Shown here: piece after piece, positions 39,746 through 51,613 of the stretch
Layout of the letters: each line of letters opens with the position of its first letter
Position numbering within the stretch: position 1 is the stretch's first letter
NCBI GenBank assembly: GCA_963921285.3
Contig: CAWUFD020000006.1
Span: 11,795 to 75,794 of the forward strand
Direction: 5' to 3'
Length of the DNA stretch: 64,000 nt
DNA from: Pseudomonadales bacterium
GTDB lineage: Bacteria; Pseudomonadota; Gammaproteobacteria; Pseudomonadales; Azotimanducaceae
Translations under genes and position numbers: made by a program
Notes under the pieces: generated by a model
Databases searched by the model: none
What the model was told of the DNA's origin: nothing
Seen by the model: the letters and a program-made list of their open reading frames with translations, nothing else

Positions 39746-40672
39746 ATGCTGTCAATGACCTACGGTGACACCACACCAGCCCCGATAGTCCTGTTTGTTT
39801 ACTCAAGACCCTGGCATACCGCCAGGACAATCGAGGCGCTGCTTGAAAACGAAGAGGCCTCAGAAAGTGATCTCATCATCTATTCTGACGCACCTGGCAC
39901 CCAATCCGCTGAATCCGCCGTTGAAGAGGTACGATCCTTTATCGAGGGAATTGAGGGCTTCAAATCCAAAACTATTTTCCTCAGGGAACATAATCTTGGT
40001 CTGGCTGAGTCAATCATAGATGGCGTCACGACCACACTAACGAAGTACGAAAAGGTCATCGTCCTGGAAGACGACATGGTCACGTCGCCACATTTCCTTC
40101 AGTACATGAACAAGGCGTTAGACCTGTATGAAGCAGACAGTGAAGTGGCGAGCATCCATGCCTACCAGTATCCGACCGAGCAAGCGCTACCCGATACTTT
40201 TTTCCTGCGAGGCACCGATTGCTGGGGGTGGGGAACCTGGCGTGAAGCATGGCAGGTTTTCAACCCCGACGGCGAGTATTTGCTGAATGAACTCCGCAGT
40301 AAAAACCTGACCAAACGGTTCGACTATGACGGGAGTTATTCCTATTCAGGGATGTTGAAGGACCAGATACGTGGCAAGAACGACTCCTGGGCAGTTCGAT
40401 GGCACGCGTCGGCTTTTCTCGCCGATAAACTGACATTGTTTCCCGGAACGTCACTGGTTCAGAACATTGGCACTGATAACTCTGGAACACACTGTGACGA
40501 CAATACAATGCTGGACGTAACGCTCAGTAATGAGCCAGTTACTCTGGAACGTATTCCGGTCGTCGAATCCGAAATCGGCCGCAATGCTATTGTGGATTTT
40601 TTTCGTGGTGCCCGTGGCAGCCTGGTTCAACGAGCCTTCAGAAAAGCGACCAGACTACTGCGATCGAACTGA
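39746..40672 (+). CDS. GT-A-fold glycosyltransferase (GT2/GNT-I-like)
   Basis: Contains PIVLFVYSRPWHTARTIEALLEN...LIIYSDAP...VIVLEDDMV (DxD-like EDD). Confidence 0.55.
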   Translation: MLSMTYGDTTPAPIVLFVYSRPWHTARTIEALLENEEASESDLIIYSDAPGTQSAESAVEEVRSFIEGIEGFKSKTIFLREHNLGLAESIIDGVTTTLTKYEKVIVLEDDMVTSPHFLQYMNKALDLYEADSEVASIHAYQYPTEQALPDTFFLRGTDCWGWGTWREAWQVFNPDGEYLLNELRSKNLTKRFDYDGSYSYSGMLKDQIRGKNDSWAVRWHASAFLADKLTLFPGTSLVQNIGTDNSGTHCDDNTMLDVTLSNEPVTLERIPVVESEIGRNAIVDFFRGARGSLVQRAFRKATRLLRSN

Positions 40673-41490
40673 TGCTTAAAGCACTTGCACAGGAGCTGCT
40701 GCCTCCCCTGGTCTATCGAGCGCTCCGCGCGAGCGGTGCTGGCAACGCCTATAAAGGTGACTACAACACCTGGGACGATGCAGTACAGGCAAGTCAGGGT
40801 TACGATGACAGTAGCATTCTTGAAAAGGTTCTGAGTGCGTCGCTTGCCGTCAAGAATGGAGCTGCCGCGTATGAAAGAGATTCGGTGCTGTTTGATCAAA
40901 TCGAATATGCATGGCCAGTGACAGCAAGCCTGATGTGGGTGGCTGCACAACACAATGGTCGCTTGAATGTGCTTGATTTTGGTGGGTCACTGGGCTCCAG
41001 CTACTTTCAAAATCGCAAGTTCCTGCAGAGCCTGGACGAAGTATCCTGGCAGGTGGTGGAGCAACCTCACTACGTGCAGACCGGTAAGGACCATCTTCAG
41101 GACGAACGGCTTCGCTTCTTCTTCGACATCAAAGAAGCCGTTGATGAAGCTCTTCCAGACGTTGTTTTACTGTCCAGCGTGCTGCAATACCTTGAGTCGC
41201 CTTACGAGCTTCTCGATGAGATAGAAAAAATCGGCACAGAGTTCCTGATCATCGATAGAAACCCGGTAGCACCCAAACCATCTGACAGGATCCTGATTCA
41301 GGAGGTACCACCGGCGATCTACGAAGCCAGCTATCCCTTCAGGGTGTTCTCAGAGAAGAAGCTACTGGAAGCACTCGAAGGTCAATGGACTGTAATCGAA
41401 AAGTATTCATCTCTGGGCGGCGTTACCCCGATTCATGGTGGCGGTCAGTTCGAATACACCGGTATGACACTGCGGCGAAAGCGCGCTTGA
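40672..41490 (+). CDS. Putative methyltransferase, TIGR04325-like family
   Basis: YKGDYNTWDDAVQASQGYDDSSILEKV...ERDSVLF...LNVLDFGGSLGSSYFQ...WQVVEQPHYV matches my memory of that family. A 1-nt overlap links its start to the upstream stop. Confidence 0.65.
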   Translation: MLKALAQELLPPLVYRALRASGAGNAYKGDYNTWDDAVQASQGYDDSSILEKVLSASLAVKNGAAAYERDSVLFDQIEYAWPVTASLMWVAAQHNGRLNVLDFGGSLGSSYFQNRKFLQSLDEVSWQVVEQPHYVQTGKDHLQDERLRFFFDIKEAVDEALPDVVLLSSVLQYLESPYELLDEIEKIGTEFLIIDRNPVAPKPSDRILIQEVPPAIYEASYPFRVFSEKKLLEALEGQWTVIEKYSSLGGVTPIHGGGQFEYTGMTLRRKRA

Positions 41491-41514
41491 TGCAATCTCT
41501 GGTAACAGCATAAT

Positions 41515-42537
41515 GTGCACTCCCTAAGACAAGGTTGCCGTTTGACAAGTTTTGCGAACAAAAGAGTGCTCATTACTGGCGGACTTGGCTTTATTGGTTC
41601 CAACCTTGCCAGGACACTGGTCTCGCTTGGGGCCGACGTCACCCTGGTCGATAGTCTGATCCCGGAGTACGGTGGCAACCTGTTCAACATTGCCGACATT
41701 CAGAGCAACGTGACTGTCAACCTGAGCGACGTCCGCGACCCATTTTCAATGGCGCAACTGATAAAAGGCCAGGATGTACTGTTCAACCTGGCTGGCCAGA
41801 CCAGCCATATGGATTCAATGACGGACCCACAGACGGACCTTGATATTAACGCCTCAGCGCAACTGTCTATTCTGGAGGCCTGCCGAGAGCACAACCCTGG
41901 CATCAAGGTGGTCTTTGCCAGTACGCGGCAGCTCTACGGTAAACCGGATTACCTGCCTGTAGATGAAGCCCATCCGATCAGGCCTGTGGATGTTAACGGC
42001 ATCAACAAACTTTCCGGCGAGTGGTATCACCTGCTATACAACAACGTGCACGGTATCAGGGCTACAGCACTCAGGCTGACCAATACCTACGGCCCCGGTA
42101 TGCGCGTCAAGGATGCCCGCCAGACATTCCTCGGCATCTGGGTCCGTTTGCTTATAGAAGGTCAGCCCATCAAGGTTTTTGGTGACGGTGAGCAGCTTCG
42201 CGACTTCAACTACGTGGACGATTGCGTGAACGCACTGATCACCAGCGCGCTGAGCGATGAAGCTAACGGCAACGTGTACAACCTTGGTAGCGCCGAAGTG
42301 ATAAGCCTGAAAGATCTCGCCGAGATGATGGTGACATTGGGTTTTGGCGGTTCGTACGAACTCATTGCCTTTCCAGATGATCGCAAGGCCATCGATATCG
42401 GTGACTACTACAGCGATTTCACAAAGATCCAACGCGAACTGGGATGGCAACCAGCGGTGTCACTCGCGGGTGGCCTGAAGCGCACCATCAGTTACTACCA
42501 GGAGAATCACGGGCACTACTGGTCCAGTGATTCATGA
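41515..42537 (+). CDS. NAD-dependent sugar epimerase/dehydratase (extended SDR)
   Basis: Contains KRVLITGGLGFIGSNLA and a YxxxK equivalent in NKLSGEWY. GTG at 41515, or a more plausible TTG at 41542. Confidence 0.8.
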   Translation: MHSLRQGCRLTSFANKRVLITGGLGFIGSNLARTLVSLGADVTLVDSLIPEYGGNLFNIADIQSNVTVNLSDVRDPFSMAQLIKGQDVLFNLAGQTSHMDSMTDPQTDLDINASAQLSILEACREHNPGIKVVFASTRQLYGKPDYLPVDEAHPIRPVDVNGINKLSGEWYHLLYNNVHGIRATALRLTNTYGPGMRVKDARQTFLGIWVRLLIEGQPIKVFGDGEQLRDFNYVDDCVNALITSALSDEANGNVYNLGSAEVISLKDLAEMMVTLGFGGSYELIAFPDDRKAIDIGDYYSDFTKIQRELGWQPAVSLAGGLKRTISYYQENHGHYWSSDS

Positions 42538-43484
42538 GCGCCGTCTCGGAACAGGATCAGACAGACTACTTCTGTACACTGTTTGATTCAGGATACCTGC
42601 TGAAGGGCTACTGCACACTGACGAGCTTAAAAGCGCAGTGCCCGAGCGCATATGTGTTTGTGCTTTGCATGAACGATGAGTGTTTCGAGATCCTGACAGC
42701 ACTCAACCTGCCGTTTGTTTCCTGTATCCGACTTGAAGACGTTGAAACACCCGCTTTGCTCGAAGCAAAGGAAGATCGAAGTGTCGCCGAGTATTGCTGG
42801 ACATTGTCGTCCTGTTTTACCTGGCACGTCATGGAGACAGAACCCCACATTGATTTCATTACCTACCTGGATGCTGATCTGCTCTTCTACTCTCCCGTGC
42901 AGCCGTTGTTTGATGAAATTGGTGAGCGTTCCATTGCCATTATCGAACACCGCTTCCCGCCTCACCTCATCGACTGGGAGGTGAACGGACGTTTCTGCGT
43001 TGAATGGGTGAGTTTCAGGCGAGACGAAGAAGGAATGGCCTGCCTTTCACGTTGGAAGGATCAGTGTATTGAGTGGTGTTACTACCGGCTCGAAGACGAC
43101 CGGATGGGAGATCAGAAGTACCTCGACGAATGGCCTGACCGATACGCCGGTTGCCATATTATCCAGGCTCTCGGGGCGGGAGTCGCGCCATGGAACTACT
43201 GTCGATATGACATCTCATCCGACGATGAGATTACCGTTGATGGCGCACCGTTGATTTTTTACCACTTTCACCAATTCCAGATGCTGGGTGACGCCAGTTT
43301 TGACCGGATTTCCACCTTCTACTCAGATTACTGTCCGGAGCCTGATGCAATTTATGCGCGGTACGAGTCTGCGCTGCAGAGTGCGTTGTTTGAGATTAGG
43401 AAAGTGCGTCCAGATTTTCGCGTGCGAAATCCATATAGCTGGTTGCAGCGCGTAAAGCGCTATCTGGGTAGGGTGTTTGGTTGA
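42534..43484 (+). CDS. Putative nucleotide-diphospho-sugar transferase (GT-A-like), otherwise hypothetical
   Basis: Contains YFCTLFDSGYLLKGYCTLTSL...YLDADLLFYSP (DxD). An ATGA overlap links it to the upstream gene. Confidence 0.4.
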   Translation: MSAVSEQDQTDYFCTLFDSGYLLKGYCTLTSLKAQCPSAYVFVLCMNDECFEILTALNLPFVSCIRLEDVETPALLEAKEDRSVAEYCWTLSSCFTWHVMETEPHIDFITYLDADLLFYSPVQPLFDEIGERSIAIIEHRFPPHLIDWEVNGRFCVEWVSFRRDEEGMACLSRWKDQCIEWCYYRLEDDRMGDQKYLDEWPDRYAGCHIIQALGAGVAPWNYCRYDISSDDEITVDGAPLIFYHFHQFQMLGDASFDRISTFYSDYCPEPDAIYARYESALQSALFEIRKVRPDFRVRNPYSWLQRVKRYLGRVFG

Positions 43485-43502
43485 TCGATAACGGAGAGGA
43501 AC

Positions 43503-43542
43503 AGATCCCTCCACTACGCCTACGGCTTCGGTCGGGATGACG
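43503..43542. repeat. REP-like palindromic element, copy 4 (degenerate)
   Basis: AGATCCCTCCactacgcctacgGCTTCGGTCGGGATGACG, compared with copy 1 at 46220. It sits in the 69-bp gap between convergent stops. Confidence 0.55.
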
Positions 43543-43553
43543 ATATGAGCTGC

Positions 43554-44279
43554 TCAAACACTTCGATTAATGAAGACTGCATCTATGTAGATGCAGTGGA
43601 AATCGTCTGCGTAGGTCTGATTCATGTTTCCGGCGTATTCGTATCCAAGTTCGTCCAGCAGGCTGACGAGTCCTGCAAATGACGCCTGCGATTCGTAAAG
43701 CGGGTCAAGGTTCACTTCAAGGATGCAGGCACCGGCTGAACGGAAGGTTTGTTTACCGCCTTTGATCACCCTGTCTTCAAAACCCTGAACATCCAGCTTG
43801 ATCAGGGTGCCACGATCCACCTGAAGTCCCATCTCAGCTGTGCAAGCATCCAGCGTGCGTTGTTGAATGGTCACAGGCCGCTGAGATCGAGTGAAAGGAT
43901 AAAGCTCTCCTTTCAGTTCGGTCGTCTTGAGCAGGGATGACGATTCTGAGTGATCCTCATGCAGGAACATTTCCACTTCACCTGACTCTTCTCCAAGCGC
44001 GTAGGGCATCGTACTGACCCACTCCCCTTCACTATCCGCCCAGGCTTCGAGTTCGGCGTACGGTTCTGGCAAGGGTTCAAAACAAACAAGATTTGCGTCA
44101 GGCAGAAACTCCCTGATCTCGCGCGCAAACTGGCCGGTGTTGGCCCCAACATCCAGTACAGTGTGAAACTGATGCTGGGCTAAGCCCATCAACGTTAGCC
44201 GCGGCACTTCCGCTTTATGCACCAGCTCCTGGCCTACGAGGCGAAACAACCAGCGAATGAAACTTTTAACCAATCCCAA
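43554..44279 (-). CDS. FkbM-family methyltransferase
   Basis: Contains VLDVGANTGQFAREI...VCFEP...LIKLDVQGFEDRVIKG. TTG start with AGGAG 6 nt upstream. Confidence 0.75.
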   Translation of the reverse strand: MGLVKSFIRWLFRLVGQELVHKAEVPRLTLMGLAQHQFHTVLDVGANTGQFAREIREFLPDANLVCFEPLPEPYAELEAWADSEGEWVSTMPYALGEESGEVEMFLHEDHSESSSLLKTTELKGELYPFTRSQRPVTIQQRTLDACTAEMGLQVDRGTLIKLDVQGFEDRVIKGGKQTFRSAGACILEVNLDPLYESQASFAGLVSLLDELGYEYAGNMNQTYADDFHCIYIDAVFINRSV

Positions 44280-44300: not shown

Positions 44301-46178
44301 TCAGGGGTGATCATCCAAATACTTCACGACCCTGTCGACACATTCTTCGATGGACAGGTTATGGGTATCAAGATAGATGTCGGGATTTTCAGGTACTTCG
44401 TAGTCGCTGTCGACTCCGGTGAAGTTTGGTAGTTCTCCCCTGCGAGCTTTGGCGTACAACCCTTTGGGATCTCGTTTTTCCGCTTCCTCGACTGAGATGT
44501 CTACGTGGACCTCAACAAAGTCCTCGTCTGAAAGAAGGCGACGCGCCGAATCCCGCTCTGCCCTGAAAGGAGAGATAAAGGCAGTGATAACAACCAGCCC
44601 GGCATCTACCATCAGTTTGGCCACTTCGGAAACACGACGTATGTTCTCTATGCGATCGCCATCTGAGAAGCCGAGATCCTGGTTCAAACCGTGCCTGACG
44701 TTATCGCCGTCAAGAATATAGGTACGGACGCCCTTGCCGTGCAGTTGCTGCTCCAGCGCATCAGCGATCGACGATTTGCCCGACCCACTCAGACCCGTCA
44801 TCCAGATCACTCGACCACGATGGCCGTTCATGGACTCCCGTGCTGCTCGATCAATAACCAGGGATTGTGCATGCACATTACTCGCCCGGCGCAGCGCAAA
44901 ATTCAACATCCCTGCGGCCACAGTGGCGTTGGAATATCTATCGATAAGCACAAACGCCCCCATGCTGCGACTGTCACCGTAGGCTTCAAAGGCAACCGGC
45001 TTGTCGAGGCTGAGCGTGGCCACGCCAATGTCATTCAACCCGAGATCTTTAGACGACAGGTGATCAAGCGTATTGATGTTGTACTTGTACTTGATGTCCA
45101 TCACAGTGGCATTCACAACGGTGTTTCCGATCTTCAGCCAGTAGGCCCTGCCAACGTGCCCCGGGTCTGTATCCATCCAGACCACATTTGCTTCAAACTG
45201 GTCAGCAACTTCATTAGGTGATGCGGCTGCAACGATGACATCTCCCCTGGAGCAGTCAATTTCGCGATCAAGTGTAATGGTGACCGCCTGGTCTGTTGTC
45301 GCCTGCTCAAGGCTGTCTGTATAGAGAATGATGTCTTTTACTTTTGCGAGTTGCCCTGCCGGCAAGACGCGAACTTCATCGCCTGGTTTTACTGTGCCGG
45401 CGACTACCGTGCCCGAAAAACCACGGAAGGTACGGTCTGGTCGATTAACCCACTGCACCGGGAATCGCAGTGGTTGTAGCGCTTTCGACTCATGCGCATC
45501 GACAGTTTCGAGAAAACCCATCAAGGTTGGGCCGCTATACCAGGACGTTTTGGCGGAACGTTCAATAACGTTATCGCCAAGTAATGCAGACAGAGGGATT
45601 GGCGTAATGGACTCGAACTCGAGCTGTTCCGCAAACCGTTCATAGTCCTCAACAATCCCTTCGTAGGTCGCCTGGTCGTAATCGACCAGGTCCATCTTGT
45701 TTACGGCGAGCGCGACGTGCTTGATACCAAGAAGTGATGTGATGAACGAATGTCTGCGGGTTTGGGTCAGTACACCTTGTGAGGCATCAACAAGAATCAC
45801 AGCAACGTCGGCGGTGGATGCGCCTGTCGCCATGTTACGCGTGTACTGTTCATGGCCGGGCGTATCTGCCACGATGAATTTGCGGTGGTCTGTTGAAAAG
45901 AACCGGTAAGCCACGTCAATAGTGATGCCCTGCTCTCTTTCTGCCGCCAGTCCGTCGACCAGTAGCGCAAAGTCGATATCGCCATCCTGGGTACCGACCT
46001 TCCTGGAGTCATTGCGCAGCGCAGCCACCTGGTCTTCGAAGATAAGCTGCGCCTCGTAAAGCATTCGGCCAATGAGCGTACTCTTGCCGTCGTCAACGCT
46101 CCCGCAGGTGATAAACCGGAGAAGGTCAAGGTTGGTCTGGGTATCGAGGTATTCCTCGATTTTTTGCAGTTCATTCAT
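44301..46178 (-). CDS. cysNC: Bifunctional sulfate adenylyltransferase subunit 1 / adenylyl-sulfate kinase (NodQ-type)
   Basis: The GTPase domain has [21 protein letters not shown] and NKMD. The C-terminal APS kinase has [11 protein letters not shown] and [14 protein letters not shown]. Confidence 0.95.
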
Positions 46179-46219
46179 TGGGTGTTCCTTGGGACTGCTG
46201 GTTTATGGTGGCATCAGGT

Positions 46220-46303
46220 GAGATCTCTCCGCTGCGCAGCCTTTGGCTGCTACGGTCGAGATGACGGTCTCTCGCCGCCATCTCGAGGGCAGCCGAGAGA
46301 TCT
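46220..46303. repeat. REP-like palindromic element, copy 1 (most complete)
   Basis: The outer arms are GAGATCTCTCCGCTGC and GCAGCCGAGAGATCTG. They enclose hairpins GCAGCC-ttt-GGCTGC and TCGAGATG-15nt-CATCTCGA. The element is intercistronic between DUF2061 and cysNC. Confidence 0.7.
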
Positions 46304-46316
46304 GAACCCTCGCACT

Positions 46317-46577
46317 TCAAGATCGCACCTCCGGCTCGGGTGCCACAATTTGACGAACCGCACCTCTGGGAACCATTTGCCACGCACGTTCATGCCCGTA
46401 ATAGATAAAAAACTTGGCAAAAAACTCTATACCGCCAATGAGGAGCGCGGCCTCCACCTCGCCCGTAATAATGAAGGCGATAATGGCGGTAGTGGTTGTT
46501 GCAACGATTCTCCATGAGAACGCTTTCAGCAGGCTTCTCAGGTGGGATTCTCGATACTCATATGGTTCTGTATGCAT
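46317..46577 (-). CDS. DUF2061-family small membrane protein
   Basis: Contains SLLKAFSWRIVATTTTAIIAFIITGE...GIEFFAKFFIYYGHERAW. Confidence 0.65.
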   Translation of the reverse strand: MHTEPYEYRESHLRSLLKAFSWRIVATTTTAIIAFIITGEVEAALLIGGIEFFAKFFIYYGHERAWQMVPRGAVRQIVAPEPEVRS

Positions 46578-46597
46578 TGGTTTCTCGTGTGTATAAG

Positions 46598-46659
46598 GAG
46601 TTCTGCTTCGGTCGAGACGACAACGTAGGGCGTCATCCCGAGCGTCAGTCGAGGGATCT
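46598..46659. repeat. REP-like palindromic element, copy 3 (degenerate)
   Basis: GAGTTCTGCTTCGGTCGAGACGAC...GTCATCCCGA...GTCGAGGGATCT. It is intercistronic between cysD and DUF2061. Confidence 0.55.
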
Positions 46660-46676
46660 GGTACACGCGATATTGC

Positions 46677-47576
46677 TTAGAAATATCCTTCCTGTTTCTT
46701 CTTCTCCATAGAGCCTGAACTGTCCGTGTCGATCGCCCTTCCCTGGCGTTCACTGGTCCTGGCTTCGAGAAGTTCCAGCAGAATCTTGGGCAAGGTGTCG
46801 GCTTCCGATTCGATTGCCCCGGTAAGGGGATAGCAGCCAAGTGTTCGGAAACGTACTCGCTTCGTCATCACTTTTTCATCGGGGAAGAGCTTCAGGCGAT
46901 CATCGTCGACCATCATGAGCATGCCGTCGCGCTCTATTACGGGTCTTTCTGCCGCAAAGTAAAGCGGCACAATGGGGATGTCCTCCTTCAGGATGTACTG
47001 CCAGATGTCCAGCTCAGTCCAGTTGGAAAGGGGAAACACCCGAATAGACTCTCCCGGCGCCTTTTTGCCGTTGTAGATGTTCCATAGTTCCGGACGCTGG
47101 TTTTTGGGATCCCATCTGTGGGCACTGTTCCTGAACGAAAACACACGTTCCTTCGCTCGACTTTTCTCTTCATCGCGCCTTGCCCCGCCAAAGGCGGCAT
47201 CAAACTTGTGTTCATTGAGCGCCTGAATCAGCCCCTGTGTTTTCATGATGTCCGTATGTAAAGCACTGCCGTGATCAAACGGATTGATGTTCTTTTCAAC
47301 ACCCTCCGGGTTGATATGAACAATCAGGTCCATACCCGTCTCATCGGCAATCATCTGCCTGAATTCATACATCGCCTGGAACTTCCAGCGGGTATCAACA
47401 TGAAGGAGCGGGAACGGTGGCTTACTTGGATAGAAAGCTTTCTGGGCCAGTCGCAACATGACAGAGCTGTCCTTGCCAATGGAGTACAGCATTACGGGGT
47501 TTTCAGATTCCGCCATCACCTCACGAATGATATGAATGCTTTCAGCTTCGAGGCGATCAAGATGTGTCAGGTCCAT
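46677..47576 (-). CDS. cysD: Sulfate adenylyltransferase subunit 2 (canonical core)
   Basis: [40 protein letters not shown]...[13 protein letters not shown]...[24 protein letters not shown] is colinear with E. coli CysD from its first residue. The ATG is at 47576-47574. Confidence 0.95.
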
Positions 47577-48188
47577 ACTTCCAGATTTCCTTTGAGAATA
47601 GCTTTTAGGGTAGCTTTGAGAATAGCTTGGGGTTTTGTGTTCGGGGTTCAGAAACGAAGCGACCGAGCTTTTTTGATAAGCGGTGAGACCAAACTGGACA
47701 TTATGAGCACCCAGTTTCAATTCCTGACTGCCATGTTGCGCGACGATATCTCTGGCGTGCTCTATAACCTCAGCACCTGGCCAGACCTGGATATCGCGAT
47801 CATAAGACTGCGTTATCTGCTCGAGAAATTCTGTCAGTGATGCACTGTCCAACTGCTGAGCGTAGTTCCAGCGGCGCCCGCCGCGACCATCGTTCACCAT
47901 CAGAACGTAACCTGCGTCAGCGTGTTGCTGTGCCTGCAGCACGAGGCATGGGACACGTTTTCTTTTTGCCTCGGCTTCCAGCTCATCGACGACCAGCTGT
48001 TTCAAGTTGAGTGCACTGATCAGTTCAGGGAGCAGTTTTACCGCGGGCAGGATTTGTTCATCATCAAGCATGCGCTCCACAGTCCGCAGTGACACGGCGT
48101 GACCTGCCAGTTTTAAGGCCTGCTGCATACCGCGTAGATCCCACGGTGCACCGGGATTGGACTTCAGAAGAGAAGGAGCGAGCTTCAT
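47577..48188 (-). CDS. 204-codon ORF of unknown function, in frame with and not separated by a stop from cysD (N-terminal extension, or an upstream gene that lost its stop)
   Basis: The ORF track gives one 503-aa ORF at 46677-48188. The N-terminal part begins [41 protein letters not shown] and ends in the low-complexity linker [18 protein letters not shown] recognise no family. Confidence 0.45.
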
Positions 48189-48260
48189 GTCGTAATTTGC
48201 AGATATTTGCTTGTTATCACTTGGGTAGTGAATATTACTCTACAAAATGCAAATTACGAC
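48189..48260. promoter_or_regulatory. 13-bp perfect inverted repeat in the AT-rich leader directly abutting the 48188 start codon
   Basis: GTCGTAATTTGCA at 48189-48201 pairs with TGCAAATTACGAC at 48248-48260, with a 46-nt spacer. Confidence 0.35.
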
Positions 48261-48285
48261 AATAATAAAATCCTACTTTTATAGA

Positions 48286-49152
48286 CTATTTTGGAATAAA
48301 TGATTTCAACATCAGCCAGGTTTGGCTGATCAATATTCTGCTGAAATCACAGATCAGAAAAGGTACAACGTGCACTGGTGGCGGCGCCAGCCTGGCAAAA
48401 TTGAGCCGATAAAGCAGGCAAAACGGTGAGCGTCGGGAGAAGAAGCTGATGATCCAGGCAATCGGAGACAAGCGTGTTTCTCCCGCTATACCGGTGTCGG
48501 TCAGCACCGCCGAGGTTGATACGGCAAGCCTATATCCAGATCTCGCTGCTCGAGCGGCGAACTCATAGTCAGCACCATAGTGCGGCAGGTGCGACTCATC
48601 GTAGAGACCACACTCCCTGAATGCGCGGACCGGGATCAACGTTCCCCGGCCTGGCAATACATTCACCTCAGGATCATCATCTCGGCCCTGCAGATCCGTC
48701 AGCGACATGCCCTCGGTCCTGTTTAGCTTTGCAGTGAGCCAGTTAACGCTGACCCCACCATCCAGCACTCGCCCGCTTCCAGCTTCGACCAGCACTGATC
48801 CGATCAAGGTGGACTCATCAGCACTTGAGACCAATTCAGCCACGTAGTCGACTGGGCACAAGGTGTCATCGTTCAGACTGAGAACGAAATCTGCGTCAGT
48901 CGCTTCGTCGAGCACCTGACTGACACCATAGTTCATACCCCCGGTCCACCAAAGGTTCCCATCACCATGCAGCACGGTGACATAGGGGTAATGCTCGTTT
49001 ATGGCCTGCGAAGTACCATCGTCTGAACCATCATCGACAACGATTGTGGTGATGTTTGAATAGGTCTGGTGGGAGAGTGTCTCGAGACAATCAAGCGTCT
49101 TTTGTTTTCGGTTGTGAACCGGTATGACGATATAGACAGCCGGTATCACCAA
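48286..49152 (-). CDS. Family 2 glycosyltransferase
   Basis: Contains VIPVHNRKQKTLDCLETLSHQTY..ITTIVVDDGSDDGT and LNDD. Confidence 0.85.
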   Translation of the reverse strand: MVIPAVYIVIPVHNRKQKTLDCLETLSHQTYSNITTIVVDDGSDDGTSQAINEHYPYVTVLHGDGNLWWTGGMNYGVSQVLDEATDADFVLSLNDDTLCPVDYVAELVSSADESTLIGSVLVEAGSGRVLDGGVSVNWLTAKLNRTEGMSLTDLQGRDDDPEVNVLPGRGTLIPVRAFRECGLYDESHLPHYGADYEFAARAARSGYRLAVSTSAVLTDTGIAGETRLSPIAWIISFFSRRSPFCLLYRLNFARLAPPPVHVVPFLICDFSRILISQTWLMLKSFIPK

Positions 49153-49161
49153 CCTCGCTCC

Positions 49162-50574
49162 CTAGTAGGCGTTTTGGGAACGGACAAGAACAAACAGTGT
49201 CCTCAGCATAATCTGGATATCAAGCCAGGGGGACCAGTTATTGATGTAGGCAAGATCATGCTGGATGCGCCCTTCCATGTCCTTGATGTCCCGCGTCTCA
49301 CCCCTGAAACCACTAACCTGGGCAAGCCCTGTAAGCCCCGGTTTAACCCTGTGTCGAGCCATATAGGAACCGATCTTGTCCGAGTAGTAGTCATTCAAGG
49401 AGATTGGGTGGGGCCGCGGTCCTACGATCGACATCGTGCCATTTAGCACGTTGAACAACTGTGGCAGCTCATCAATGCTCGACTTTCTGATAAACCTCCC
49501 AATGGGGGTCACCCTCGGGTCATCTCGAGTGGCCTGGGTTGCAACACCATTCGGTTCTTCATGAACCACCATGCTCCTGAATTTGTAGATTTTGATAACC
49601 TCGCCATCCCAACCATGACGTAACTGCGTGAAGATGACCGGCCCAGGCGATGTCACTTTGATGATGAGCGCTGTGACTAACATCACCGGTGAAAGCACAA
49701 TCAGCGCCACCAGCGCGATGCTGAAATCCATCACTGCTTTGATGAACTTGTTGCTGCCAACCAGCGGGGTTTCAGACAGGGAGATGACAGGTGCGCCGCC
49801 AAGTTCCCGAACGCTGTGGTTTAAAAGATCGACGCTGAAAATATCAGGTGCCCAGATAACGTCGATGTTCAGCTCAGCGAGGCGAACGAACAGTGGTTGA
49901 ATCAGATCCGCCTGTTTCATCGGCAACGCAAGATAAACTCGCCGGATATCGTACTGCTTAATGGTTTCTTCCAGACGGTCAATCGATGCTATTGCACTAC
50001 CATTACCGTTCGTTTCGTCTGACTCGATCAACCCTACAACCTCATCAGGAATCCACCGGTTTGCATTGATGACCCATTCGAGGTGCTGTGCGAGTTCCTG
50101 TGTGCCGACAATCACACAGGGGATTTTCTCTGCGGAGGACTTGATCAGCAGTTGGCGAACAAAGAGATAAGACAGCAGTTGCGCAACAAAACCTGAGATG
50201 GACCATAGAACTGTTGCTTCCCGCGAGAAGGTCGCAGAGGACTTCGTCAGGAACGTCACGGCTATTGTTAACGCCACAACCACGCTCCATGATTTTATCA
50301 GCGCCGTAAATCGATCAAAGAAAGAAGAATTGATGCGGTAAACGCCGTTCAACGAATAGACCACCAGCATCAGCAGAACGATCGAAAACGCGAGCAGGCG
50401 GTGCGGGGTATCGTCCCACTGCATGCCGCGATACCACGCATGGAAGAAAAACAGCCCCACAACAAGAGCCACGTCCAGAATCATCTGCAGCCAGCGTGCA
50501 GAGGAATTGTGTTCGCGAACTAGCGCTTTCCCGGATTTCGGGATTCTGCTGGTGGCTGCCTGGGTTGCGTTCAT
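49162..50574 (-). CDS. Polyprenyl-phosphate hexose-1-phosphate transferase (WcaJ/WbaP-type initiating phosphoglycosyltransferase)
   Basis: Several N-terminal TM segments. The C-terminal sugar-transferase domain has KFRSM, DELPQLFNVLNGTMSIVGPRP and KPGLTGLAQVSG. Confidence 0.9.
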   Translation of the reverse strand: MNATQAATSRIPKSGKALVREHNSSARWLQMILDVALVVGLFFFHAWYRGMQWDDTPHRLLAFSIVLLMLVVYSLNGVYRINSSFFDRFTALIKSWSVVVALTIAVTFLTKSSATFSREATVLWSISGFVAQLLSYLFVRQLLIKSSAEKIPCVIVGTQELAQHLEWVINANRWIPDEVVGLIESDETNGNGSAIASIDRLEETIKQYDIRRVYLALPMKQADLIQPLFVRLAELNIDVIWAPDIFSVDLLNHSVRELGGAPVISLSETPLVGSNKFIKAVMDFSIALVALIVLSPVMLVTALIIKVTSPGPVIFTQLRHGWDGEVIKIYKFRSMVVHEEPNGVATQATRDDPRVTPIGRFIRKSSIDELPQLFNVLNGTMSIVGPRPHPISLNDYYSDKIGSYMARHRVKPGLTGLAQVSGFRGETRDIKDMEGRIQHDLAYINNWSPWLDIQIMLRTLFVLVRSQNAY

Positions 50575-50776
50575 GGCGCGTAGTTTACCACCTGGAAGCT
50601 AGCAGTCTGCAGGACTTAGCGCTGATCTACTGCGCTGATGGGAAATTGGCCAGATTATCCAGTTTTCCTCGTTGAATATTCTCGATATTCGCCGAAACGT
50701 CGGACCGCTGAAAAACCGAATAATCTGACTCAATTTCCCACCGTGCTCGCTACGATCGTCTAAGCCCCGCAGACTG

Positions 50777-51613
50777 CTAGTATTCTCCTCTGATAAGACG
50801 CATAACCCTGGCAGGGGTCAGGCGTTGAATCAGGTTCCAGGACAATCGCGGGACCGAGCGAAGAATCAACTTCCAATCGGGCTCACTGGCCAGGTGATGT
50901 AAACCCAGCGATTTGGCGATGGCGGACGATTTTGCGTCAGATCCACTTTCAAAGAATCGTGAATTCAGATAAGTGCCGCCGATCGCAACCACAGATTTTT
51001 TGAATCCATGCTCTTTGATCAGCCTTGGCATCTGGAGGCGGCCGAAGTCCAGCACCCCCTCAGTCAGTTCGAGGTCCGCAAAGAAAAAACCGTGGCGCGT
51101 CAGGAAATCCTGCATTTGCATGAAGGTATTTTCACCTTGATAGAATTCATAAATACCCGGTTCAATCGACACGGCCGTCAGGTTGTGCAAAACCTCATCA
51201 GGCAAGGCGGCAAGGATATCCATGTCTGCGCCCTGGGTATCCAGCTTGATCCAGTCCGCCGTTACCGATTCCTGCTCAAGAAATTCTGCGAGCGCCACCG
51301 CTTCGACTGTCGTTTCTGACACAACAGAGAAGCGTTCAGCAAAGGTATATCGATTAACGTGAACCGGGTTAGGCGGCTTCAGGCTGGAACACGTTGGATT
51401 CCTGGTCAGATAGAACGGCAACTCACTTGTCTGCTCAGCAATGGCCACCGCATGAAATTCCTGCCCCTCAAACTTCGGCACCAGCCGGCCGTCTGGATCA
51501 AACGATATAATTCTTCGTTGTTTCAGCTTGAGGAAGGGATCATAGGGACGTACGGATCCGCCGATATCAAGGCAGACGACGGGAAAATCTCGAGCACTCA
51601 TCTTCGCAACCAA
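50777..51613 (-). CDS. FkbM-like methyltransferase
   Basis: Contains CLDIGGSVRPY and WIKLDTQGADMDILAAL. Same subtype as 33850-34791. Confidence 0.6.
   Translation of the reverse strand: MVAKMSARDFPVVCLDIGGSVRPYDPFLKLKQRRIISFDPDGRLVPKFEGQEFHAVAIAEQTSELPFYLTRNPTCSSLKPPNPVHVNRYTFAERFSVVSETTVEAVALAEFLEQESVTADWIKLDTQGADMDILAALPDEVLHNLTAVSIEPGIYEFYQGENTFMQMQDFLTRHGFFFADLELTEGVLDFGRLQMPRLIKEHGFKKSVVAIGGTYLNSRFFESGSDAKSSAIAKSLGLHHLASEPDWKLILRSVPRLSWNLIQRLTPARVMRLIRGEY

Follow-up and report, generated by a model that had tools for sequence, protein, structure and literature searches.

A CysD fusion with an N-terminal domain probably derived from an IS630-family transposase and a conserved inverted motif pair at its promoter

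The 64,000-nt stretch of DNA analysed here from a Pseudomonadales bacterium of the Azotimanducaceae (contig CAWUFD020000006.1, hereafter the window) contains a long cysD gene on the reverse strand at 46677–48188. In the list of open reading frames (ORFs), the gene comprises 503 codons plus a stop codon and encodes one polypeptide consisting of an N-terminal domain, a linker and CysD, the small subunit of sulfate adenylyltransferase; the database gene call for the source is the same 503-amino acid (aa) protein (P0035). The canonical CysD portion corresponds to 46677–47576 (residues 205–503 plus stop) and begins with an internal methionine, Met205, at 47574–47576. As an initial annotation of this DNA had pointed out, the frame is open for an extra 204 codons upstream of this canonical start, and no potential start codon precedes the ATG at 48188 once the upstream stop codon has been passed. 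Canonical CysD proteins are about 300 aa long and lack an N-terminal domain, whereas the window protein carries 204 aa more. The gene is followed on the same strand by an operon partner encoding a DUF2061 small membrane protein (46317–46577; PF09834, E 3.1e-20) and by cysNC (44301–46178; GTP_EFTU and APS_kinase domains), the operon and catalytic partner of CysD, which encodes the GTPase subunit of sulfate adenylyltransferase fused to adenosine 5'-phosphosulfate (APS) kinase.

Residues 201–503 matched NCBIfam NF009214 (527 bits against a cut-off of 413, E 1.8e-158), TIGR02039 (508.9 bits against a cut-off of 396.6) and Pfam PF01507 (PAPS_reduct; E 6.7e-56). The PP-loop ATP-binding motif (S-x-G-K-D-S) is present as SIGKDS at residues 236–241 and is nearly invariant in the alignment described below, and the CysD parts of related loci share 69–90% identity with that of the window. 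The C-terminal part is an ordinary member of the CysD family, is predicted to catalyse APS formation, and, in its 299 aa and the cysNC gene downstream, has the same layout as the canonical proteobacterial CysD–CysN(C) ATP sulfurylase. Exact-sequence look-ups of the 503-aa and 299-aa products gave no match. In agreement with the initial annotation, no purine-rich Shine-Dalgarno sequence was found before 48188, and the AGGAAA located 9–11 nt ahead of the internal ATG is weak. A 189-aa antisense ORF (47271–47840, forward strand) overlaps the junction of the cysD gene opposite its conserved coding region and is most likely spurious.

The junction peptide, which agrees with the translation given in the initial annotation, belongs to a low-complexity linker at 47577–47660 (residues 177–204), and residues ~176–205 were disordered in the full-length structural model (predicted local distance difference test score, pLDDT, 45–54). 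The length and sequence of this linker differ among homologues. Within it, a repeat search and Tandem Repeats Finder identified a 12-nt tandem repeat of 3.2 copies at 47590–47628. The 15-nt direct repeat reported initially is present as two identical copies (47590–47604 and 47614–47628), but a third, 80% identical copy lies between them (47602–47616), and because Tandem Repeats Finder gives a period of 12 with 3.2 copies, the repeat unit is four codons rather than the eight first proposed. The linkers of the homologues lack this repeat, which represents a recent, lineage-specific expansion of the tether and is probably neutral.

To place the gene in context, a genome collection containing one genome per species was scanned, and 80 cysD loci were identified. 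In 51 of these loci (including L042, which ends at its contig end), the frame is open for 450–641 aa (487–641 aa from stop to stop), corresponding to about 200 or more added N-terminal codons; the remaining 29 loci contain a short cysD. The hosts of long cysD genes are mostly marine Pseudomonadales (Azotimanducaceae, OM182, Litoricola, and HIMB30), and the others include SAR116 and other Alphaproteobacteria, a Parvibaculaceae, a Polynucleobacter, and Granulosicoccaceae. The long fusion thus spans alpha-, beta- and gammaproteobacteria (~50 species-level genomes). A search with the full-length protein recovered more than 110 clusters of 440–520 aa from metagenomes, and those clusters that are named are labelled just ‘sulfate adenylyltransferase subunit CysD/2’. 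In an alignment of the window protein and 118 database homologues (n = 119), 112 sequences carry the N-terminal extension. The extension contains a series of conserved motifs, namely W16, S-L-R-T-x-E38-R39-x-L, LP, DE-G, AK(K/R)KR, the invariant Q85, NDGRxGRRW, WPHG, and (L)TAY. For the nearly invariant W16 to be part of the protein, translation must begin at 48188.

Pairwise ratios of nonsynonymous to synonymous substitution rates (dN/dS) were 0.09–0.33 for the N-terminal part and 0.01–0.07 for CysD; the N-terminal part is under purifying selection and evolves about 10 times faster than the enzyme. The argument made initially, that so long an open frame exceeds chance expectation, is borne out by the 51 related loci in which it is open and by this selection. 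No methionine was found within six residues of the CysD start in 42 of the 112 long proteins and 21 of 52 loci, and these homologues can therefore make only the long polypeptide. The initial annotation had left two explanations side by side, a genuine fusion and an upstream gene that had lost its stop codon. The latter, or an indel that artificially joined two genes and left the 299-aa CysD as the only functional product, could draw on the presence of Met205 with a weak upstream AGGA in the window and on one lineage that has deleted the N-terminal domain and lives on the short form (L031 and L044, described below). However, independent assemblies from ~50 species and more than 110 protein clusters all have this in-frame arrangement, and the N-terminal part shows purifying selection, a confidently predicted fold and, in ~40% of homologues, no junction methionine. 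A stop or frameshift between the two parts, which the initial annotation had named as the sign to look for in close relatives, occurs in L031 and L044 only, where it results from secondary deletion of the N-terminal domain. Of the two explanations, the fusion therefore stands, the artefact is effectively refuted, and we regard the gene as almost certainly encoding one conserved polypeptide.

A stand-alone gene for the N-terminal domain was also sought. An exhaustive HMMER search of 1.84 billion representative proteins yielded 31 matches to the domain, of which 18 (including all matches of at least 160 aa) were retrieved and inspected; no stand-alone N-domain gene was present among these 18, all of which are pieces of this CysD fusion. 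The other 13 matches are each shorter than 160 aa. Word-indexed homologue searches gave nothing with the N-terminal part alone and three fragments only with the N-domain profile, a result that reflects a limitation of the index because the full-length query recovered more than 100 long homologues. One metagenomic protein (P0003, 257 aa) was set apart by its partner: its N-domain (residues 1–157) runs, as judged by eye, into an apparent fragment of the succinyl-CoA ligase alpha subunit and not into CysD, which may reflect either an assembly chimera or another kind of fusion. Neither this fusion nor any other regulatory fusion of CysD turned up in literature searches, and the domain, its origin and the promoter motif described below have gone unnoticed because databases label these proteins simply as ‘CysD’.

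The structure of residues 1–180 was predicted by AlphaFold2 using the 119-sequence alignment. The model has a mean pLDDT of 92.2 and a predicted template modelling score (pTM) of 0.88, and contains helices at residues 18–27, 34–43, 53–60, and 64–76, followed by strands and helices in the order beta-beta-beta-alpha-beta-alpha-beta-beta. The first three helices (pLDDT >90) form a predicted winged helix-turn-helix (wHTH) at residues ~16–60 (48009–48143), which is supported by the AlphaFold2 helices, conservation and an hhalign match to the second helix-turn-helix (HTH) of IS630 transposases, and which substantiates the HTH-like beginning noticed in the initial annotation. It carries the nearly invariant W16 and R35, and its helix S-L-R-T-x-E-R-x-L includes E38 and the invariant R39. 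Residues ~78–170 (47679–47957) form an RNase H-like half-domain, identified by AlphaFold2, Foldseek and hhalign, which contains the motifs AKRKR, the invariant Q85, NDGRxGRRW, and WP(H)G and is catalytically dead. When the model was compared with the Protein Data Bank (PDB) using Foldseek, the top matches were exclusively catalytic cores of DDE transposases or retroviral integrases (P-element transposase; ASV, RSV, and HIV integrases; and Mos1). A sequence-profile search of the PDB yielded nothing but weak matches (E 1.7e-4 and below), to a designed knot and to Helicobacter pylori HP0242; these involve helices only and disagree with the fold search, and were rejected as spurious.

The ancestry of the domain is most apparent in Granulosicoccaceae, in which CysD carries a longer N-terminus of ~300 aa with two HTH motifs, equivalent to an almost complete IS630 transposase that is catalytically dead. 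This longer N-terminus matched the NCBIfam family ‘IS630 family transposase’ with E-values of 3e-13 to 5e-9 (36–50 bits against NF033545, under its cut-off of 100 bits) and gave sub-threshold Pfam matches to HTH_29, HTH_32, and HTH_33. Annotated plasmid IS630 transposases match it over 95–100% of its length, and the comparison with a profile built from six such transposases gave 99.8% probability and an E-value of 6e-29 over 267 columns. The profile of the short N-domain, in turn, matched the Granulosicoccaceae form with 89% probability and an E-value of 2e-6 over 146 columns (hhalign), and matched the IS630 profile directly with an E-value of 1.7e-4 at transposase positions 98–273, which comprise the second HTH and the first two-thirds of the catalytic core. 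In this alignment, the first catalytic Asp of IS630 coincides with the variable A86, beside the invariant Q85, and the second coincides with the near-invariant P137; the third acidic residue falls past the end of the N-domain. Because the Asp positions are replaced and the third acidic position lies beyond the end, the N-module is a truncated, catalytically dead remnant. Three results weaken this line of descent: the Foldseek E-value (~3e-3) is marginal and the TM-scores are low (0.3), with probabilities of 0.84–1.0; the N-terminal part of the window protein has no significant match in Pfam or NCBIfam; and the direct IS630 profile match is of moderate strength (50% probability). The initial view that this part belongs to no recognised family stands for Pfam and NCBIfam, yet the profile comparisons point to a degenerate derivative of an IS630 transposase. 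On balance, the N-domain very probably descends from an IS630-family transposase (Tc1/mariner superfamily).

The domain shares an HTH and an RNase H-like core with IS630 transposases (NF033545; HTH_29, HTH_32, HTH_33, and DDE_3), but it has kept neither their DDE triad nor their first HTH, and the C-terminal third of these enzymes is missing as well. Unlike the transposase genes, the long cysD has no flanking terminal repeats or target duplication, as its inverted motif pair lies entirely upstream of the gene, and it is a single-copy gene that is orthologous across species and always located at cysD. The protein is therefore a member of the CysD family and not of the IS630 transposase family, and its N-terminal part is very probably a domesticated transposase, as evidenced by orthologous position, purifying selection and loss of the DDE triad.

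Just upstream of the long cysD lies a perfect 14/14 inverted repeat, which on the coding strand consists of TGTCGTAATTTGCA, 46 nt, and TGCAAATTACGACA. The proximal operator-like arm, TGCAAATTACGACA, is located at 48188–48201, its last A being the A of the ATG start codon, and the distal arm, TGTCGTAATTTGCA, is located at 48248–48261, 60 nt upstream of the proximal arm (start to start). These arms are the only perfect sites for the motif TGWCGYAATWTGCA within the 64-kb window, and looser matches occur at chance level. When up to 2 mismatches are allowed, ~38 of the 46 long-cysD loci that do not belong to Granulosicoccaceae have the pair at the corresponding position upstream of the gene, and this number rises to ~43 if weaker arms with canonical spacing are included. 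None of the 29 short-cysD loci has it. Among 241 million metagenome records, the perfect paired motif was found in three contigs, in all of which it lies directly upstream of a long cysD. The start-to-start spacing is 59–60 nt in 19 loci (the window and 18 others), 80–83 nt in 15 loci, and 102 nt in one locus; the steps of ~21 nt correspond to two turns of B-DNA.

Near-consensus sigma-70 promoters lie between the arms in the relatives, e.g. TTGAYA, 16–17 nt, (C/G)ATAAT, and in 19 of 35 loci the distance from the end of the -10 element to the proximal arm is -1 to +4 nt. The candidate sigma-70 promoter of the window (48203–48232, reverse strand; TTCACT, 18 nt, AAATAT) is weak, with a -10 element ending 1 nt before the proximal arm. 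It was read from the sequence by analogy with eight related loci (L001, L004, L006, L009, L014, L016, L017, and L051), and an alternative promoter consisting of TCGTAA, 16 nt, and TAATAT has its -10 element at 48232–48237. Neither this promoter-flanking inverted repeat nor the IS630-derived domain and the 12-nt period of the linker had been recorded in the initial annotation.

Such an inverted repeat could instead form a hairpin in the 5'-leader RNA that hides the start codon and controls translation, with no relation to the N-domain. The arms of the window are indeed perfectly complementary; if transcribed, they would fold with -24.6 kcal/mol (z -4.65) and place the AUG at the foot of the stem, in front of which there is no Shine-Dalgarno sequence. 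In the relatives, however, the near-consensus promoters sit between the arms, and the distal arm is therefore not transcribed. Pairing between the arms is that of independent copies (11.3 of 14 positions observed versus 11.0 expected for independent drift around the consensus), with no covariation, and the spacing steps of ~21 nt follow the geometry of a DNA helix, not that of RNA. No RNA family was found by Rfam in the region 46000–48700. We consider regulation by such a hairpin very improbable.

The pair might also be a functionless fossil, consisting of the two terminal repeats of a miniature element of the IS630 type that stayed behind next to the transposase gene when it was captured. The descent of the N-domain would fit this explanation, as would the fact that IS630 transposases bind terminal inverted repeats located right beside their own start codon, as in the sampled loci L081–L087; the inverted arrangement beside the start codon of cysD recalls these IS630 left ends, although the repeat sequences of the five sampled elements differ from the motif. 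A functionless 14-bp sequence would, however, not survive between lineages whose N-domains are only 20–40% identical, nor would a fossil keep its helical phasing or a fixed position relative to the -10 element. Together with the dissimilarity between the motif and the sampled IS630 repeats, these features leave little room for a mere relic.

Variants of the promoter element were observed in several loci. In L030, the two arms share a variant that is longer by one base (TGTCGTCAAAT ... ATTTGACGACA), and the HTH helix is also unusual (QKKIERLL versus LRTxERxL), which could mean that protein and site have changed together. An additional, weaker motif copy is present ~23 nt upstream of the distal arm in L001, L009, and L014 and beside the proximal arm in L016 and L021; these copies suggest that some loci have more than two binding sites. 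Five Granulosicoccaceae loci (L048, L064, L065, L070, and L074) share an AT-rich conserved element of their own, TTCTTGCAATTAAATATTTAA ... TTAATTGTTTAAT, located ~20–75 nt upstream of the start, and the two-HTH form of the protein may use this element as an operator distinct from the motif pair.

A natural deletion was found in two metagenome-assembled genomes (L031 and L044), in which CysD is 89% identical to that of the window and most of the N-domain has been lost. The remnants are its first three codons (MTF) and its tail (LALTAYRN...KKDRS), which are mutually out of frame. A 33-codon upstream ORF (MTFNRRW...; 3429–3530 in L031 and ~6010–6110 in L044) ends in a TAA that overlaps the ATG of the cysD starting with MDLTHLD (ATGGACTTAA), an arrangement suggestive of translational coupling with the short CysD. 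In both genomes, decay has left the distal arm unrecognisable. Because this lineage lives on a short CysD, the N-domain is dispensable for catalysis. Dispensability is as expected of a regulatory add-on, and the situation parallels that of biotin ligases, for which versions without a DNA-binding domain exist in other lineages (Group I versus Group II; PMC4016012).

From these observations, we infer that the N-module is a motif-binding protein, that repression is the effect of its binding, and that a signal from the enzyme governs it. It is more likely than not that the N-domain binds the motif pair and autoregulates the operon. In the proposed mechanism, the 503-aa protein translated from the ATG at 48188 consists of a 176-aa N-module, a disordered tether of ~28 aa and a normal CysD, and the N-module would bind the two inverted 14-bp sites that bracket the promoter of its own operon, i.e. 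a distal site upstream of the -35 element and a proximal site covering the transcription start and the start-codon region. CysD works in oligomeric complexes with CysN(C), and because of this oligomeric state two N-modules could grip both sites at once and loop the promoter. Clamping of the two sites is possible because they share a helical face and the proximal site covers the start of transcription and translation. The cysD-DUF2061-cysNC operon would be repressed when free enzyme is in excess or when the ligand state signals sulfur sufficiency, and occupancy of the sites would be set by the ligand or assembly state of the enzyme. CysD would then act as a self-contained ‘trigger enzyme’ of the BirA/PutA type.

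Several observations weigh against this mechanism. The junction methionine is retained in the clade of the window, and a separate 299-aa CysD could therefore also be made there. No second target of the motif beyond chance was found in the window or in the flanks of the related loci, so that no regulon is available as a cross-check. The Granulosicoccaceae loci lack the TGWCGYAAT motif, and the dissimilarity of the motif to the sampled IS630 terminal repeats tells against autoregulation as well as against a fossil. Furthermore, another transcription factor common to all hosts could bind the motif. The last point belongs to an alternative in which the N-module is real but does not bind DNA, serving instead in oligomerisation, in docking to CysNC or the DUF2061 protein, or in allostery, while a separate host factor acts at the motif. 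DNA binding by the N-module is predicted from homology; the most conserved motifs (NDGRxGRRW, WPHG, and Q85) lie in the RNase H-like half and not in the HTH; and the pTM of the full-length model (0.77) is fairly high and may indicate packing of the two domains. On the other hand, R35, E38, and R39 of the HTH helix are nearly invariant, and this helix is homologous to the DNA-binding HTH of IS630 transposases. Motif and N-domain occur together in alpha-, beta- and gammaproteobacteria, the motif is missing from every one of the 29 short-cysD promoters, and no other candidate factor travels with it because the neighbouring genes are not conserved. A non-DNA-binding role consequently appears unlikely, and autoregulation through the motif pair is the interpretation that we carry forward.

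Functionally, the closest known systems are enzymes that control their own pathway through a fused DNA-binding domain, namely BirA (Group II), PutA, NadR, and RbkR (PMC4016012, PMC5397151). Proteins of the BirA/PutA type and the long CysD are alike in combining an enzyme with an N-terminal (winged) HTH and inverted operator sites at their own promoter, the sites of the long CysD being candidates. Two hallmarks of an enzyme–repressor fusion are present here: a predicted wHTH and CysD in one polypeptide, and conserved operator-like sites at its own promoter. The long CysD differs in that the enzyme is CysD, the module is derived from a transposase and retains a dead RNase H-like half-domain, and DNA binding and effector are predicted. 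The regulatory role of RbkR was likewise predicted from a domain fusion and a conserved upstream motif (PMC5397151).

With respect to evolution, the nearest counterpart is SETMAR/Metnase, in which a SET methyltransferase of primates has been joined to a domesticated Hsmar1 mariner transposase. The HTH of SETMAR still targets Hsmar1 inverted repeats and represses nearby genes (PMC8327481). Both SETMAR and the long CysD consist of an enzyme fused to a transposase of the Tc1/mariner/IS630 superfamily that has lost transposition. However, the long CysD is bacterial, its transposase part is N-terminal and heavily truncated (one HTH and half of the catalytic core), and it has only two candidate sites, both at its own promoter, whose origin from terminal repeats is speculative. 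Tentatively, an analogous history can be proposed, in which cysD captured an IS630 transposase in frame, the transposase became catalytically inactive, its DNA-binding head came to read two operators at its own promoter, and the enzyme reports the status of sulfate activation directly to transcription. The operator sites would, as a matter of speculation, derive from the terminal repeats of the transposon, and the promoter, operators, regulator, and enzyme would form a cassette that moved between marine alpha-, beta- and gammaproteobacteria.

The genes around the long cysD were also compared. The cysNC gene is located directly downstream in essentially all loci, the order cysD-(DUF2061)-cysNC being conserved, and the DUF2061 gene adjoins cysD or cysNC in most long-cysD loci, lying between the two in the closest relatives and after cysNC in others. 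The upstream neighbours vary among the long-cysD loci, and the co-travelling unit therefore consists of the motif, the long cysD and cysNC. In the gap between the DUF2061 gene and cysNC (46179–46316), two nested imperfect inverted repeats were found (46221–46235 with 46289–46303, 93% complementarity; and 46249–46267 with 46275–46293, 79%), which could form an intercistronic stem-loop. In the window, cysD-DUF2061-cysNC is surrounded by a polysaccharide-synthesis cluster (39746–44279 and 48286–51613) containing genes for GT2 glycosyltransferases, an initiating sugar transferase, an epimerase/dehydratase, and two FkbM methyltransferases. This polysaccharide context upstream was found in no related locus, and the 3'-phosphoadenosine 5'-phosphosulfate (PAPS) made here may feed polysaccharide sulfation.

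Taken together, CysD carries in many lineages a widespread, unannotated N-terminal domain, very probably of transposase origin, with a matching conserved promoter element. The hypothesis of autoregulation is testable with one protein and one 90-bp DNA fragment. If it is correct, the long CysD would be a new member of the small set of enzymes that double as transcription factors, and the first such enzyme in sulfate activation. The fusion would, in addition, provide a clear example from prokaryotes of the domestication of a DNA transposase into a regulator, a process that is, to our knowledge, well documented in eukaryotes and rarely in bacteria. For the organisms themselves, such a system would explain how sulfate assimilation is controlled in abundant marine lineages (relatives of OM182, Azotimanducaceae, Litoricola, HIMB30, and SAR116), and it could supply sulfur regulation in streamlined genomes that lack a dedicated CysB-type regulator.

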